From Escherichia phage NC35: a stretch of 6,039 nucleotides of DNA. Shown one piece after another: positions 730-6,039 of the stretch. The notes beneath the pieces are model-generated. The model worked only from the letters and a program-made list of their open reading frames with translations. It had not been told where the DNA came from and searched no databases. The number at the start of each line of letters is the position of its first letter. Positions within the stretch are counted from its first letter, which is position 1. Where the stretch lies: sequence record NC_007820.1, one strand, 5' to 3'. The position numbers were made by a program, and so were the translations under genes.

Positions 730-2214
730 ATGGCTACTGAAGTTTTCTCTGATGTTGTTAAGACCGTCTGGTCCCACGCTACGGCTAAGCATGCCCATCT
801 TCGTATGGCTGTTCAGGTTGATAACCGCAGTCGCCTTCTTTCTGACCTTGTTTATCAGTTGGAAAAACGCCTTTCTGAAGAGACTCATTTAGATGATGAG
901 ACTCTTGCTGTTTATGAATCTCAGACCGCTCTTCTGGAAGACCATATGGCTCTGGTTCGGAAGTGTGCTGCCCAACTTGATAATAGTAACACTATAGACC
1001 ACCGTACCCCTTTGGATGCCGAATGTGTTTTCCTGTTTGAAATGATTTGCCCAGGTGTTCGCTACGGTAAAACGTTGAATTCTCTTTGGTCTAAGTATGT
1101 TGCTCAATGGCCTGAGAAGTTAATTCGTCAAGAGTTAGACATGGTTAAGCCTTTATCCTTTAAGGATGAGGTTGCTAAGTACATGGAGAAGATGCAGGAA
1201 AAAACACGTAAAAATCGCATGACTCAAAAAGTAATTAATGATATGCGTATTGCTCACCAAAAGGGCTGGTTTTTCGTATTTGATACGTTGACACTTGCTG
1301 ATGACCGTTTGCAGGCATTTAATGAAAACCCCAATGCTCTTCGTGATTATTTCAGGACTGTTGGTCGAGCTGTTCTGCGCGCTGAAGGTCGTTCGGTTAA
1401 GGATTCCTACAACGACTGCTATCGCTATCTTTGTGTGCCGGAGTTTGGAGGTCAGCACGGTCGTCTTCATTGGCACGTTGTGCATATGGTGCGGACTCTT
1501 CCTTTGGGAAGTCACGACCCTAATTTCGGTCGCAAGGTACGTAATTATCGCCAGATTAACTCGTTCCGTGGCATGTGGCCTTATGGCTTCACGCAACCGA
1601 TAGCTGTACGCTATCAACATGATGCTTATTCTCGCAAAGGTTGGTTGTGGCCTGTTGACAAATCAGGTAAAGCAATGCAGAGTAAGCCCTATCAGGCGGT
1701 CGCATGGTATGTGACCAAGTATGTAGCCAAGCAATCTGACCAGCGTCAGAAAGCTATTACTGAGAGACAAAAAAAATGCAAGAATCCACTTATGGCAATC
1801 TGTCTGAAAAAGGAATTCAGAGTTCGCAGCAGCCGGAAGCTCGGAATGGAGTTACCTTCGATGGCGCATCTCAGCAACAAAGTGCTTCTGGAACTGAGCC
1901 GAATCAGCTTCGATTCCAGTCCTCTGTATCAGATAGTGAAAGAGAACGCCAAAAAGCAATTGACCTTGAACATCGGCGCACTGCCTTTGCACGTCATTTT
2001 GGATGTGCGCCCGGAAGTGAGAAGTATGTTGAAAAATATCCGTCGTTTGATGAAAAAGACACCCGAGTTCAATTGGCAGAGTTCTATCGCTTCAATGACG
2101 GTCACCTTAAAAAATGGGGATATTTCTGATGAAGCACGTCAATACATTATTGATGCAGGAATTACGCCTTTTGATTTGCGAGCTAAAGCGACTCAAACTT
2201 TCGGCGGTAAGTGA
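730..2214 (+). CDS. A: Replication initiation protein A (rolling-circle HUH endonuclease), 494 aa.
   Basis: Clear similarity to phiX174 protein A across the conserved core (FVFDTLTLADDRL, NPNALRDYFR, GRLHWHVVH HUH-type motif, YVTKYVAK two-tyrosine active-site motif, C-terminal DISDE...AGIT...GGK). GAGGA (716-720) precedes ATG 730. An in-frame stop at 697-699 rules out a longer N-terminus. Confidence 0.95.
   Translation: MATEVFSDVVKTVWSHATAKHAHLRMAVQVDNRSRLLSDLVYQLEKRLSEETHLDDETLAVYESQTALLEDHMALVRKCAAQLDNSNTIDHRTPLDAECVFLFEMICPGVRYGKTLNSLWSKYVAQWPEKLIRQELDMVKPLSFKDEVAKYMEKMQEKTRKNRMTQKVINDMRIAHQKGWFFVFDTLTLADDRLQAFNENPNALRDYFRTVGRAVLRAEGRSVKDSYNDCYRYLCVPEFGGQHGRLHWHVVHMVRTLPLGSHDPNFGRKVRNYRQINSFRGMWPYGFTQPIAVRYQHDAYSRKGWLWPVDKSGKAMQSKPYQAVAWYVTKYVAKQSDQRQKAITERQKKCKNPLMAICLKKEFRVRSSRKLGMELPSMAHLSNKVLLELSRISFDSSPLYQIVKENAKKQLTLNIGALPLHVILDVRPEVRSMLKNIRRLMKKTPEFNWQSSIASMTVTLKNGDISDEARQYIIDAGITPFDLRAKATQTFGGK
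973..1002 (+). other. Viral (+) strand origin of rolling-circle replication, a 30-nt conserved element inside gene A; predicted nick between G979 and A980.
   Basis: CAACTTGATAATAGTAACACTATAGACCAC matches the phiX174 origin 30-mer (CAACTTG/ATATTAATAACACTATAGACCAC, recalled from memory) at 27 of 30 positions, in the equivalent place within A (encoding ...LDNSNTIDHR...). Confidence 0.85.
1219..2214 (+). CDS. A*: A* protein, an in-frame internal restart of gene A (332 aa), inferred by homology to phiX174.
   Basis: Internal ATG at 1219 corresponds to the phiX174 A* initiator position just upstream of the conserved HADGW/HQKGW segment. No strong Shine-Dalgarno seen; call rests on synteny only. Confidence 0.45.
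   Translation: MTQKVINDMRIAHQKGWFFVFDTLTLADDRLQAFNENPNALRDYFRTVGRAVLRAEGRSVKDSYNDCYRYLCVPEFGGQHGRLHWHVVHMVRTLPLGSHDPNFGRKVRNYRQINSFRGMWPYGFTQPIAVRYQHDAYSRKGWLWPVDKSGKAMQSKPYQAVAWYVTKYVAKQSDQRQKAITERQKKCKNPLMAICLKKEFRVRSSRKLGMELPSMAHLSNKVLLELSRISFDSSPLYQIVKENAKKQLTLNIGALPLHVILDVRPEVRSMLKNIRRLMKKTPEFNWQSSIASMTVTLKNGDISDEARQYIIDAGITPFDLRAKATQTFGGK
1776..2129 (+). CDS. B: Internal scaffolding protein B, 117 aa, encoded within gene A in a different frame.
   Basis: C-terminal similarity to phiX174 B (AEFYRF...GYF terminus), acidic and Gln-rich N-terminal half, nested in A as in phiX174. Confidence 0.9.
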   Translation: MQESTYGNLSEKGIQSSQQPEARNGVTFDGASQQQSASGTEPNQLRFQSSVSDSERERQKAIDLEHRRTAFARHFGCAPGSEKYVEKYPSFDEKDTRVQLAEFYRFNDGHLKKWGYF

Positions 2215-3025: not shown

Positions 3026-3030
3026 TTGAT

Positions 3031-3044
3031 GGGGCTTCGGCCCC
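3031..3044 (+). terminator. J-F intergenic hairpin GGGGC(UUCG)GCCCC; likely terminator or mRNA-stabilising stem-loop.
   Basis: Perfect 5-bp G/C stem closing a C(UUCG)G tetraloop, immediately followed by TATAAGGAT (the F Shine-Dalgarno). phiX174 has a J-F intergenic hairpin at the equivalent position. Confidence 0.5.
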
Positions 3045-3059
3045 TATAAGGATTTTTAA

Positions 3060-4343
3060 ATGTCAAATGTACAAACTTCCGCTGAGCGTATCCCTCATGA
3101 CCTGTCTCATCTGGTTTTTGATGCAGGCAAAATTGGTCGTTTAAAAGTTGTTTCTTGGACTCCTGTTGTTGCAGGTGATTCTTTTGAGCTTGATATGATT
3201 GGCGCTATTCGCCTCTCCCCGCTTCGTCGTGGTCTTGCTGTTGACTCTCGCGTTGACTTGTTCACGTTTTATGTTCCTCATCGTCATGTATATGGTGAGC
3301 AGTGGATTGAGTTTATGAAGCAAGGTGTTGATGCTGCTCCTCTGGCTCCTGTTCAGTGCTCTCGTGGTTGGGATAGTGCGCAGTATCTCGCTACTATTCC
3401 GTCTAGTAACTTAAAGGTTCCTAAGTTCCTTCATCAAGGTTACCTGAACATTTATAATAACTATTTTAAAGCTCCGTGGATGGATGACTTGACTTATGCT
3501 AACCCGTCCAATATGAAAGGTGAAGACGTTCGTTTTGGTGTTCGTGCATGTAACTTGAAAACTATTTGGACCGCTCCGCTTCCTCCGGACACTGAAACCT
3601 CTCATTCTATGGAGACTGAGTCTAACTCCATTGACATTATGGGTTTGCAAGCCGCTTATGCTCAATTACATACTGAGCAGGAGCGTGATTACTTCATGAC
3701 TCGTTATCGTGATATTGTTAATGAATTTGGTGGTAGTACTTCTTATGATGCGGATAATCGTCCTTTGCTTGTTATGCATTCTGAGTTCTGGGCCTCAGGC
3801 TATGACGTCGACGGCACCGACCAAAGCTCTCTCGGTCAGTTCTCCGGTCGTGTCCAGCAGACGTTTAAGCATTCAGTACCGCGATTCTTCTGTCCTGAGC
3901 ATGGCACTATGTTCACACTCGTATTGGTCCGCTTCCCGCCGACTCATGAAATGGAGATGCATTACTTAGTTGGTAAAGAAGATTTGACTTATACTGATTT
4001 GGCTTGTGACCCGGCTTTGATGGCTAACTTGCCTCCGCGTGAGGTTAATATGTCTCAGTTCTTCCATTCTGGAAGTGCTAGTGCTAAGTTTAAAATTGCT
4101 GAAGGCCAGTGGTATCGCATGCAGCCTGACCGTGTTGCGCTGCCGTATAACTATCTTGATGGTTTTCCGTTCTATAGTGCGATTCCGTCTGATGATATTA
4201 AGCAGCGTGTTCTGGTTAATACTGATAACTACGATGAGGTTTTCCAGTCTATGCAGCTTGCTCACTGGAATATGCAGACCAAGTTCAACTGCACGATTTA
4301 TCGTAATATGCCGACTACTCGTGATTCTATTATGACCTCTTGA
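3060..4343 (+). CDS. F: Major capsid protein F, 427 aa.
   Basis: Extensive similarity to phiX174 F from MSN-QT-AER-PHDLSH through the C-terminal NLPTTRDSIMTS; same length as phiX174 F. AAGGA (3048-3052) upstream of the ATG. Confidence 0.97.
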   Translation: MSNVQTSAERIPHDLSHLVFDAGKIGRLKVVSWTPVVAGDSFELDMIGAIRLSPLRRGLAVDSRVDLFTFYVPHRHVYGEQWIEFMKQGVDAAPLAPVQCSRGWDSAQYLATIPSSNLKVPKFLHQGYLNIYNNYFKAPWMDDLTYANPSNMKGEDVRFGVRACNLKTIWTAPLPPDTETSHSMETESNSIDIMGLQAAYAQLHTEQERDYFMTRYRDIVNEFGGSTSYDADNRPLLVMHSEFWASGYDVDGTDQSSLGQFSGRVQQTFKHSVPRFFCPEHGTMFTLVLVRFPPTHEMEMHYLVGKEDLTYTDLACDPALMANLPPREVNMSQFFHSGSASAKFKIAEGQWYRMQPDRVALPYNYLDGFPFYSAIPSDDIKQRVLVNTDNYDEVFQSMQLAHWNMQTKFNCTIYRNMPTTRDSIMTS

Positions 4344-4349
4344 TTATGT

Positions 4350-4363
4350 GGGGCTTCGGCCCC
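4350..4363 (+). terminator. F-G intergenic hairpin GGGGC(UUCG)GCCCC, identical to the J-F hairpin.
   Basis: Same 14-nt stem-loop as at 3031-3044, again followed by TTAAGGAT (the G Shine-Dalgarno). Confidence 0.5.
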
Positions 4364-4380
4364 CTTTAAGGATATTGATT

Positions 4381-4926
4381 ATGTTTCAAGTTTATGTTTC
4401 TAAGCATGTTTCTCCGTTCACCTCTATGAATCGTGCTTTTGGTATTACTCCTTCTAGCAATCCGACTGTTGTTAACTCTGGTGAAATTCAGGCTGGTCGT
4501 TCTACTTTTCGTATTGCCTCTTCCATTGGTGCCGCTTCCAATGGTCAAGGTTTTGCGTTTGTTCAAATGATGGACCCTTATTCTCCTGATAATCAGCAGG
4601 TTTTTTCTGTTGCTGCTTCCCTGTCTTTTAGTGTTGATTCGAACTATGTTCCTTGCGTTATTCGTTTTGAGACTGCTAGCACGCAGCCGACTAATATCGA
4701 TGTTTCTACTGCTGACTTTATTCCGCTTGAGTCTTCTGCTCTCTCTGCTCGTGCTCTCAGTGTTCGTGATTGTGTTACCGTTGATGTTAAGCCTCGCATT
4801 GAAGGTAATAACGTTTTCGTTGGTGTGGTTTTCTGTTCTGCTGGAGCTAGTGCTGGTAATGTCACTGGTGCTGTTTCGATGGCTCAGGTTGACCATGAAG
4901 TTACAGCTTTGCAGCCTCTTAAATAA
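4381..4926 (+). CDS. G: Major spike protein G, 181 aa.
   Basis: N-terminus MFQ(V/T)(Y/F)(V/I)S(K/R)H and C-terminus ...TALQPLK match phiX174 G (MFQTFISRH...ICLQPLK), plus the central RFE(T/S) and DCVT(V/I)DV motifs. ATG 4381 with AAGGA (4368-4372) upstream; the ORF-track start at 4348 is a GTG inside the hairpin and is rejected. Confidence 0.95.
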   Translation: MFQVYVSKHVSPFTSMNRAFGITPSSNPTVVNSGEIQAGRSTFRIASSIGAASNGQGFAFVQMMDPYSPDNQQVFSVAASLSFSVDSNYVPCVIRFETASTQPTNIDVSTADFIPLESSALSARALSVRDCVTVDVKPRIEGNNVFVGVVFCSAGASAGNVTGAVSMAQVDHEVTALQPLK

Positions 4927-5061
4927 AAGGCCGCCGCACTCCCGGTTATATGCCTGCCCAGTGTAGGGCGGACCGAGCCGTACGGAGATACCCGATAAAC
5001 TAGGAACGTGGAAGGCGCAAGCCGCCTTCCATCCTGCTAAGCCTAAAGGAGACTTTCAGCT
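4927..5061 (+). other. Structured, GC-rich G-H intergenic region (135 nt) with at least two hairpins and an 8-bp palindrome; candidate complementary (-) strand origin or primase recognition site.
   Basis: Hairpins at about 4954-4971 (CTGCCC / GGGCGG, 6-nt loop) and 5009-5031 (GGAAGGCG / CGCCTTCC, 5-nt loop), a CCGTACGG palindrome at 4978-4985, and CTG at 5034-5036 just 3' of the second hairpin. G4-type phages place a DnaG-dependent origin in an untranslated hairpin-rich region. Confidence 0.4.
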
Positions 5062-6039
5062 ATGTTAGGTGCCGTTGTAGGTGGTATTGCTTCAGCCTTA
5101 GCCGGTGGAGCCGCCTCTAAGTTATTTGGTGGTAAGTCTGCCCCTCAAGCCGCTACAGAGTCCGCTGGCCTATCTAATGGTCAAGGTGTTATTGGTATGG
5201 ACCAAGATGCCGGTATTCAGTCGGCTATTCAGGGTTCAAATGTCCCAAATGGTCAGATTCCCGCCCCCACGCAGACTGGTGGTGTTATGTCTGATGCTAA
5301 AAACATGATTAAGAATGCTGGTAAGGATTTGCTTGATGGTGTCATGACTGCTGGTAGTGACCGAGTCAAACAAGCTTTGGTTGATGGATTGAGTGGTAAT
5401 AATGCAAAGAAACAAGGACAAGCAACCCGTGATTACTTGGCTGCAGCCTTCCCTGAACTCAATGCATGGGAGCGTGCTGGAGCTGGTGCTTCCGGCGCCG
5501 GCTTGGAATCTTCCAGCCAGGACCAACAGAAAGAATTGATGCGAATGCAGTTGGACAACCAGAAAGATATTGCGAAGATGCAGATGCAGAATAATTTGCA
5601 GATTGCAGGTATTCAGTCCGCTACTTCTCGTCAAAATACGAAGGATTCTGTTTATGCACAGAATGAGATGCTTCAGTACAATCAGCGTGAGTCGCAAGCG
5701 CGTGTTGAGTCCATCCTCGCCAACACTGACCTTACGGTTAAACAGGCCACCCATGAAATCATGAGAATGGCCCTTACTCGTGCTCAGGAGACTGGTCAAC
5801 ATTTAACTAACTCTCAGATTATGGCATTGGAGAAAAAGGTTTATGCAGAAATCGGAAAAATTCATCAAGATACTCAAAACTCTCGCTATGGTAGCTCTCA
5901 AGTTACTGCTGCGGCGAAAGATGTTACAAATATGATTTCTGATGCTGTTGGCGGTTTTGCCGACTGGGCTTCCCAGCAATGGAATTCCTTCTTTAAGGAT
6001 GGTAAGTCTAATGGTATTCCTCTTAATACCAGAAAATAA
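5062..6039 (+). CDS. H: DNA pilot (minor spike) protein H, 325 aa.
   Basis: Strong similarity to phiX174 H: N-terminal glycine-rich hydrophobic segment (GGIASALAGGA-SKLFGG), central TRDYLAAAFPELNAWERAGA, and AGIQSATSRQNTKD-VYAQNEML. AAGGAG (5046-5051) upstream; stop TAA at 6037-6039 is the window end. Confidence 0.96.
   Translation: MLGAVVGGIASALAGGAASKLFGGKSAPQAATESAGLSNGQGVIGMDQDAGIQSAIQGSNVPNGQIPAPTQTGGVMSDAKNMIKNAGKDLLDGVMTAGSDRVKQALVDGLSGNNAKKQGQATRDYLAAAFPELNAWERAGAGASGAGLESSSQDQQKELMRMQLDNQKDIAKMQMQNNLQIAGIQSATSRQNTKDSVYAQNEMLQYNQRESQARVESILANTDLTVKQATHEIMRMALTRAQETGQHLTNSQIMALEKKVYAEIGKIHQDTQNSRYGSSQVTAAAKDVTNMISDAVGGFADWASQQWNSFFKDGKSNGIPLNTRK

Follow-up and report, generated by a model that had tools for sequence, protein, structure and literature searches.

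The 135-nt spacer between genes G and H of Escherichia phage NC35 is very probably a complementary-strand origin of the alpha3 type, with orthologues in the dnaG-dependent origins of alpha3, St-1 and phiK and a homologue in the oric of G4. Judged by sequence comparison, we give this reading a probability of roughly 93%. The preliminary description had put the G-H spacer forward as a candidate primase-dependent complementary-strand origin, and the proposal is supported by homology to known origins, by a unique match of a covariance model and by covariation. Conserved geometry and purifying selection on the spacer are further observations made in NC35. The element itself is already known and is not new.

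The window, i.e. the whole stretch of 6039 nt that was analysed, is a complete genome of an alpha3-group microvirus (Alphatrevirus) and aligns with its relatives end to end. Whole-genome identity is 94.0% to NC3, about 92-93% to ID32, WA13, WA45, ID21 and NC29, and 84.5-86% to alpha3, St-1 and phiK. Gene names were taken from the annotation of NC3 and other relatives. The spacer and its surroundings are as follows:

4381-4926: gene G, stop codon TAA at 4924-4926, by position and relatives' annotation
4927-5061, + strand: G-H intergenic spacer, 135 nt; predicted complementary-strand (minus-strand) origin module, with the ribosome-binding site of H at its 3' end
5047-5051, + strand: AGGAG Shine-Dalgarno sequence of gene H, read from the sequence; inside the spacer, outside the origin homology
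5062-6039: gene H, ATG at 5062, by position and relatives' annotation
3026-3059: J-F spacer, 34 nt
4344-4380: F-G spacer, 37 nt

The location of the G-H spacer is identical in 13 annotated relatives, and it is non-coding DNA of the viral (+) strand. All three spacer lengths agree with those given in the preliminary description, and so does the statement that the G-H spacer is richer in G+C than its flanks. Its G+C content is 58.5% as compared to a genome mean of 44.7% (sd 4.9), which is the maximum among all 6039 circular 135-nt segments. Secondary-structure prediction for the single-stranded DNA, proposed earlier as a check, gave a minimum free energy of −24.9 kcal/mol, the lowest among 394 sliding 135-nt segments of the genome (mean −11.7, sd 4.0), and hairpin I, described below, was predicted to be paired. 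Relative to shuffles of the spacer itself the folding energy has a z of −2.2.

When the phage collection was searched with the spacer by sensitive blastn, 29 records were found, all of them alpha3-like or G4-like. In the part aligned by blastn the G-H spacers of alpha3-like phages are 91-99% identical to that of NC35 (alpha3 91%, St-1 95%, phiK 93%), and in the genome alignment the whole 135-nt spacer shows 87-99% identity to 13 alpha3-like genomes. The F-G spacer of the G4-like phages ID52, NC6 and vB_1081 was matched at 78.9% identity (E 6e-20). With the G4 spacer as the query, blastn returned G4-like records only, and it was the reverse search that linked both groups. The link to G4 is based on the alignments and on the covariance model rather than on the blastn search with the G4 spacer.

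The NC35 spacer aligns end to end with the F-G spacer of G4, and hairpin I falls on G4 positions 3972-3992. The RefSeq record of G4 (NC_001420) places an "RNA primer of replication" at 3970-3997 and an "origin of compl. strand synthesis" at 3998, both inside the F-G spacer, in agreement with the location between F and G that the preliminary description gives for the G4 origin. The CTG at 5034-5036 of NC35 is aligned column for column with the CTG at 3996-3998 of G4, T3997 being the T of this CTG. At G4ori, SSB and primase are sufficient for priming, synthesis starts at the T of a CTG located 3' of stem-loops, and a primer of up to 28 nt is made and then extended by Pol III (PMC6783573). Alignment to the origins of G4, alpha3, St-1 and phiK, another of the checks suggested beforehand, showed that the spacer is homologous to them over its full length.

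The same searches bear on the possibility that the spacer is a primosome assembly site of the phiX174 type, bound by PriA (protein n') and needing DnaB, DnaC, DnaT, PriB and PriC before primase can act. It is general knowledge that phiX174, a single-stranded DNA phage of the same subfamily, uses such an intergenic hairpin site, and the task would be the same, i.e. to start the complementary strand on SSB-coated DNA. The protein requirements of the phiX174 site differ from those of G4-type origins. However, none of the 29 records is phiX174-like, sensitive blastn detected no sequence similarity to the phiX174 site, and the region is homologous to origins that are documented as needing SSB and primase only. 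We regard a primosome assembly site as extremely improbable.

Covariance model R1 was built from only the four experimentally studied origins (alpha3, St-1, phiK and G4), with stems I and III as its structure. Searched with filters off, the window contains a single match to the model: positions 4927-5061 on the + strand, 158 bits, E about 1e-48, covering model positions 1-135. The runner-up in the window, with 9.6 bits, is the reverse strand of hairpin I. There was no second candidate origin in the long H-A region or elsewhere in the window in this search. An origin elsewhere, such as in the H-A region, had been named beforehand as what would speak against the proposal; the sole R1 match is the spacer. 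Rfam models gave no match in the whole window at permissive E-value thresholds, and the spacer was without a match in the RefSeq complete genomes of E. coli.

The position of the alpha3-type origin, on which the preliminary description was unsure, can be settled by hairpin I. The minus-strand origins of alpha3, St-1 and phiK, which depend on primase, were sequenced in 1979. In PMC13037366, with reference to Sims, Capon and Dressler (1979, J Biol Chem 254:12615), the origins of St-1 and alpha3 are described as having a hairpin I with a stem of 8 bp around GCGTTAGC, the counterpart in G4 being GCGAAAGC. The motif GGAAGGCGTTAGCCGCCTTCC occurs once per genome in alpha3, St-1 and phiK, always in the G-H spacer. 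Because the published hairpin I is unique there in each genome, the alpha3-type origin is placed between G and H. As judged from this secondary description and the sequence match, the published origin of alpha3 and St-1 is the G-H spacer. We found no paper in the open full-text literature that words the alpha3 origin as lying between G and H. Kodaira et al. (1992) are said to have stated this location.

The predicted priming site consists of a hairpin and the trinucleotide that follows it:

5009-5031, + strand: hairpin I, a perfect 9-bp stem (5009-5017 / 5023-5031) with a 5-nt loop; in relatives 8 bp (5010-5017 / 5023-5030)
5034-5036, + strand: CTG, primase initiation trinucleotide; predicted primer start opposite T5035

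The core of hairpin I at 5010-5030 reads GGAAGGCG-CAAGC-CGCCTTCC, a G+C-rich 8-bp stem around a GCGNNAGC loop region. More specifically, the loop region GCGCAAGC (5015-5022) matches the GCGNNAGC mini-hairpin motif, which is described in PMC13037366 and for which Table 1 of that paper gives melting temperatures. In all 25 aligned sequences the loop varies only at the N positions of GCGN(N)AGC, where CA, TT, TA, AA, A or T are found. With DNA parameters, hairpin I has a pairing probability of 0.98-1.00 in each of the 17 sequences that were folded (20 sequences less NC19, NC6 and ID52). It is the only perfect stem of at least 8 bp with a loop of 3-8 nt in the genome. Because about 10% of whole-genome dinucleotide shuffles contain a stem of at least 9 bp, hairpin I alone is only mildly unusual and not decisive.

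The 8-bp hairpin and the CTG directly after it had both been noticed in the preliminary description. The hairpin is present, with 9 bp in the NC35 genome and 8 bp in all relatives, and the CTG begins after a gap of 2 nt from the 9-bp stem. Counted from the 8-bp stem, T5035 lies 5 nt downstream, as in G4. The sequence CTGC is invariant in 25 of 25 aligned sequences. A second CTG of the spacer is located at 4954-4956.

NC35 shares with the origins of alpha3, St-1 and phiK the genus, the G-H position, the 8-bp core of hairpin I, the CTGCTAAGCC context, stem III and the lack of hairpin II. The loop of hairpin I is GCGTTAGC in these three phages, whereas NC35 has GCGCAAGC, a variant common to NC35, NC3, ID32, WA13, WA45 and MG945254. 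NC35 also differs from them by two substitutions that are private to it among the 25 aligned sequences, C-to-A at 5031 and C-to-T at 5043. A5031 adds a ninth base pair to hairpin I, otherwise 8 bp long, and the distance from the stem to the CTG thereby shrinks to 2 nt. Neither substitution touches the CTG or breaks a stem.

In the 5' half and the centre of the spacer the following elements were distinguished:

4929-4935, + strand: 5' arm of stem III, GGCCGCC, with its long-range partner at 4967-4974
4967-4974, + strand: 3' arm of stem III, GGCGG-A-CC, with A4972 bulged
4954-4971, + strand: alternative local hairpin CTGCCC/GGGCGG, arms 4954-4959 / 4966-4971, a rival of stem III for 4967-4971
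4976-5008, + strand: central block, conserved in sequence and without a conserved hairpin, located where G4 has hairpin II
4978-4985: palindrome CCGTACGG, within the central block

Covariation was studied in an alignment of 25 sequences (17 alpha3-like, 5 G4-like and 3 from plasmids). For stem III 99.4% of the cells are paired, and compensatory changes are found at two pairs (C-G / T-A / G-C at one, G-C / A-T at the other). In hairpin I there is one compensatory change, a pair that is A-T in alpha3-like and C-G in G4-like phages. When hairpin I and stem III are taken together, 96.8% of the cells are paired, as compared to 35-57% with slid partners. The two stems contain 17 double-change cells, a number that was reached in none of 500 shuffles. 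In WA45 (L010) the 3' arm of stem III reads GGGCATGCC in the part aligned to 4970-4973, and not GGGCAGACC. The bulge is moved by one position and changed from A to T (GA to TG), and all seven pairs can still form.

The 6-bp stem hairpin of the preliminary description is probably CTGCCC/GGGCGG. There is no perfect 6-bp inverted repeat here, the candidate containing a T.G mismatch, and as a functional element the local hairpin was rejected since it shows no compensatory change in the 25 sequences. When alpha3, ID32 and St-1 are folded with DNA energy parameters, it competes with stem III thermodynamically or is preferred to it, and therefore both pairings may exist. The pairing of the 5' half that phylogeny supports is the long-range stem III and not the local hairpin.

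Scanning 185,579 species-representative genomes with the stem III core pattern gave 23 matches, about 17 being expected by chance (18 specified bases, 596 Gb). These were rejected as chance matches because R1 matched none of them beyond the seeded 21-mer. In a pattern scan of viral contigs 16 loci were found, of which all but two belong to known phages or to alpha3-like UViGs whose G-H spacer is the same. The two others, L027 and L033, are unrelated chance matches within other sequence.

Stem III is also shared with the G4 oric (NC_001420, V00657), together with about 79% identity over about 130 nt, a hairpin I with a GCGNNAGC loop, the distance of 5 nt from the stem to the CTG, and the location in a non-coding spacer on the viral strand. 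However, the G4 element lies between F and G and that of NC35 between G and H; the 37-nt F-G spacer of NC35 contains only a GGGGCTTCGGCCCC hairpin. Stem III of G4 is two pairs longer, stem I of G4 has a C-G pair where NC35 has A-T, and hairpin II of G4 (CGGAGA/TCTCCG) has no counterpart in NC35. Since the pairs of hairpin II are unpaired in 14 of 14 alpha3-like sequences, the NC35 element belongs to the alpha3 subtype and not to the G4 subtype.

No part of the spacer is better conserved than the central block, which takes the place of hairpin II: in 14 alpha3-like genomes its mean identity is 98.6%, and 88% of its columns are invariant. The perfect palindrome pointed out earlier does exist at 4978-4985 but does not stand as a functional element. 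An 8-nt palindrome is expected by chance about 0.5 times per 135 nt (simple arithmetic), and CCGTACGG is not intact in ID62, phiK and WA45, nor in any of the G4-like phages or plasmid homologues. It is for this reason not a constrained feature, and it was rejected as not conserved.

Selection was analysed in a whole-genome alignment of 14 alpha3-like genomes. In the spacer core (4927-5044) 81% of the columns are invariant, as compared to 84% of the second codon positions of H and to 34% and 24% of the third codon positions of H and G, respectively. The 3' tail with the ribosome-binding site of H (5045-5061) has 29% invariant columns and is the least conserved part of the spacer. Against alpha3, St-1, phiK and Lilleven, identity is 87-90% in the spacer, 58% in G, about 70% in F and 79% in H. 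The degree of conservation in the spacer core resembles that of second codon positions and is far above that of synonymous sites, i.e. the core is under purifying selection.

These data have to be weighed against the view that the GC-rich spacer is a product of chance, functionless in itself and with accidental hairpins. The occurrence of a stem of 9 bp or longer somewhere in a tenth of the shuffled genomes would fit such an explanation, as would the palindrome being at chance level. It is already contradicted by the conservation, which goes far beyond that of synonymous sites, and by the compensatory changes; moreover, the homology spans two phage genera and a plasmid family. We consider a spacer of no function to be highly unlikely.

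Small plasmids of E. coli from livestock faeces, 8-9.6 kb in size, were found to contain full-length homologues of the origin module; in them the element is non-coding and antisense to all genes. In the 9653-bp plasmid pRHB29-C22_2, present in two copies in the plasmid collection, the whole spacer was matched at 79.9%. The element is present in two related plasmids (8.0 and 9.0 kb) as well; the named examples are pRHB29-C22_2, pRHB34-C15_2 and an 8-kb plasmid. R1 scores of the three plasmids are 71-87 bits over the full model length. The matches are located as follows:

L040 (CP057337.1), 1067-1201, minus strand: plasmid homologue, R1 match
L064 (NZ_CP062904.1), 1347-1481, minus strand: plasmid homologue, R1 match
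L065 (CP057168.1, locus coordinates), 1835-1968, minus strand: plasmid homologue, R1 match

All three plasmid homologues share with NC35 stem III, in which they have further compensatory changes, as well as the CCCTCCTGC context around the CTG and the spacing. Just downstream of this context pRHB34-C15_2 has TCAGCC rather than TAAGCC. What differs is hairpin I, which is rebuilt around a GCGAAGC core, and the setting, a double-stranded plasmid whose genes are all on the other strand; here the element would be a putative priming signal. G4-type single-strand initiation signals (ssi) occur on R1/R100-type plasmids. Rfam gave no match at gathering thresholds in the three plasmid loci. The plasmid family is typed as non-mobilizable and encodes an AlpA-like HTH protein, an Sf6-like small terminase subunit and a resolvase, with an HNH endonuclease added in one relative. 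Pfam and PHROGs scans of the plasmid open reading frames revealed no recognisable Rep or other replication protein. It is conceivable, with chances that we put slightly below even, that the primase-recognition module of about 130 nt is a mobile cassette that occupies the F-G junction in G4-like phages, the G-H junction in alpha3-like ones and a non-coding region in plasmids with no recognisable Rep gene.

The plasmid homologues are antisense elements in non-coding DNA and therefore point to a function in DNA and not in mRNA. This is of importance for the explanation that the spacer acts mainly as RNA, its hairpins ending or stabilising the G transcript or tuning the translation of H, while priming takes place elsewhere. 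The + strand has the sense of the mRNA and the hairpins would form in RNA too; the Shine-Dalgarno sequence of H is located at the end of the spacer; and terminator-like hairpins are present in two other spacers of this genome, J-F and F-G. In the scan of 4927-5061, however, no terminator-like site (hairpin plus T run) and no promoter-like site was found, and there was no Rfam match. The sequence directly 3' of hairpin I is ATCCTGCTAAGCC, which does not contain the T run of a terminator. The part adjoining the start of H is the one least conserved, and the invariant CTGC at a fixed distance from hairpin I is a feature whose meaning for primase is known. Because the module is found at another gene junction in G4 and is antisense to the plasmid genes, a role at the level of DNA rather than mRNA is favoured. 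A mainly RNA-based function is very improbable in our view; the spacer may have a secondary role in RNA besides priming.

The hairpins of the two shorter spacers deserve a description of their own. Both J-F (3029-3047) and F-G (4348-4366) contain the identical GGGGCTTCGGCCCC hairpin, at 3031-3044 and 4350-4363, respectively. It is followed by TAAGGAT and the start of the next gene, forming a repeated cassette of a hairpin plus a ribosome-binding site. The J-F copy scores as terminator-like.

For the complementary-strand origin, the biochemical steps and the primer sequence can be predicted for NC35 by analogy with G4. After entry of the + strand, SSB would coat the circle except at stable structures, in this case hairpin I (5009-5031) and the region of stem III (4929-4974). 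These structures would phase SSB, and the SSB-free DNA would bind DnaG without DnaB, DnaC or PriA. Primase would then begin an RNA primer opposite T5035 in the CTG and copy leftward through hairpin I for about 28 nt. Extension of the primer around the circle by DNA polymerase III holoenzyme would give the replicative form. The stretch concerned is:

5008-5035, − strand: predicted RNA primer template, the reverse complement of the stretch aligned with G4 3970-3997

By analogy with the 28-nt primer of G4, AGUAGGGACGGCGGCUUUCGCCGUCCAU, the predicted primer is 5'-pppAGGAUGGAAGGCGGCUUGCGCCUUCCAC (AGGAUGGAAGGCGGCUUGCGCCUUCCAC). Its 5' end would be pppA opposite T5035, in a sequence starting with AGGAUGGAAGG.

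Some further observations concern other parts of the genome. The sequence CAACTTGATAATAGTAACACTATAGACCAC at 973-1002, inside gene A, closely resembles what we take to be the conserved 30-nt viral-strand origin that is cut by protein A in phiX174-type phages. If this is true, about 4 kb lie between the plus- and the minus-strand origin, which is also the case in G4. The H-A region (1-729) is 91-94% identical to that of alpha3, St-1 and Lilleven, and only 82-86% identical to that of ID32, WA13, WA45, ID21, NC29, MG945254, ID62 and NC28. Genes F and G (3060-4926) show the opposite pattern, with identities of 90-96% and 80-85%, respectively, to the WA13-like set versus about 70% and 58% to alpha3 and St-1. 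In sequence terms, such mosaic relatedness of the NC35 genome suggests recombination between alpha3-like lineages. The H-A region contains small open reading frames at 65-433 (122 aa), in the region 437-526 (about 30 aa) and at 511-699 (62 aa), and their counterparts in phage Lilleven are annotated as hypothetical proteins.

With the reading proposed here, the one long non-coding GC-rich spacer in the structural-gene block of NC35 gets a function that was established more than 40 years ago for alpha3, St-1, phiK and G4. The by-products of the comparison are modestly useful in that they help to delimit what a primase-only priming signal requires: it is stem III and not the local hairpin that covaries, variation in the loop of hairpin I is limited to the free positions of GCGN(N)AGC, hairpin II of G4 is dispensable across a whole genus, and a diverged copy is present in a plasmid family. 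If the plasmid copy is functional, microviruses and plasmids have exchanged a priming signal for the host primase. The needs of DnaG would in that case be isolated as stem III, a hairpin with a GCGN(N)AGC core and a CTG at fixed spacing, while neither hairpin II nor the exact stem of hairpin I would be required.
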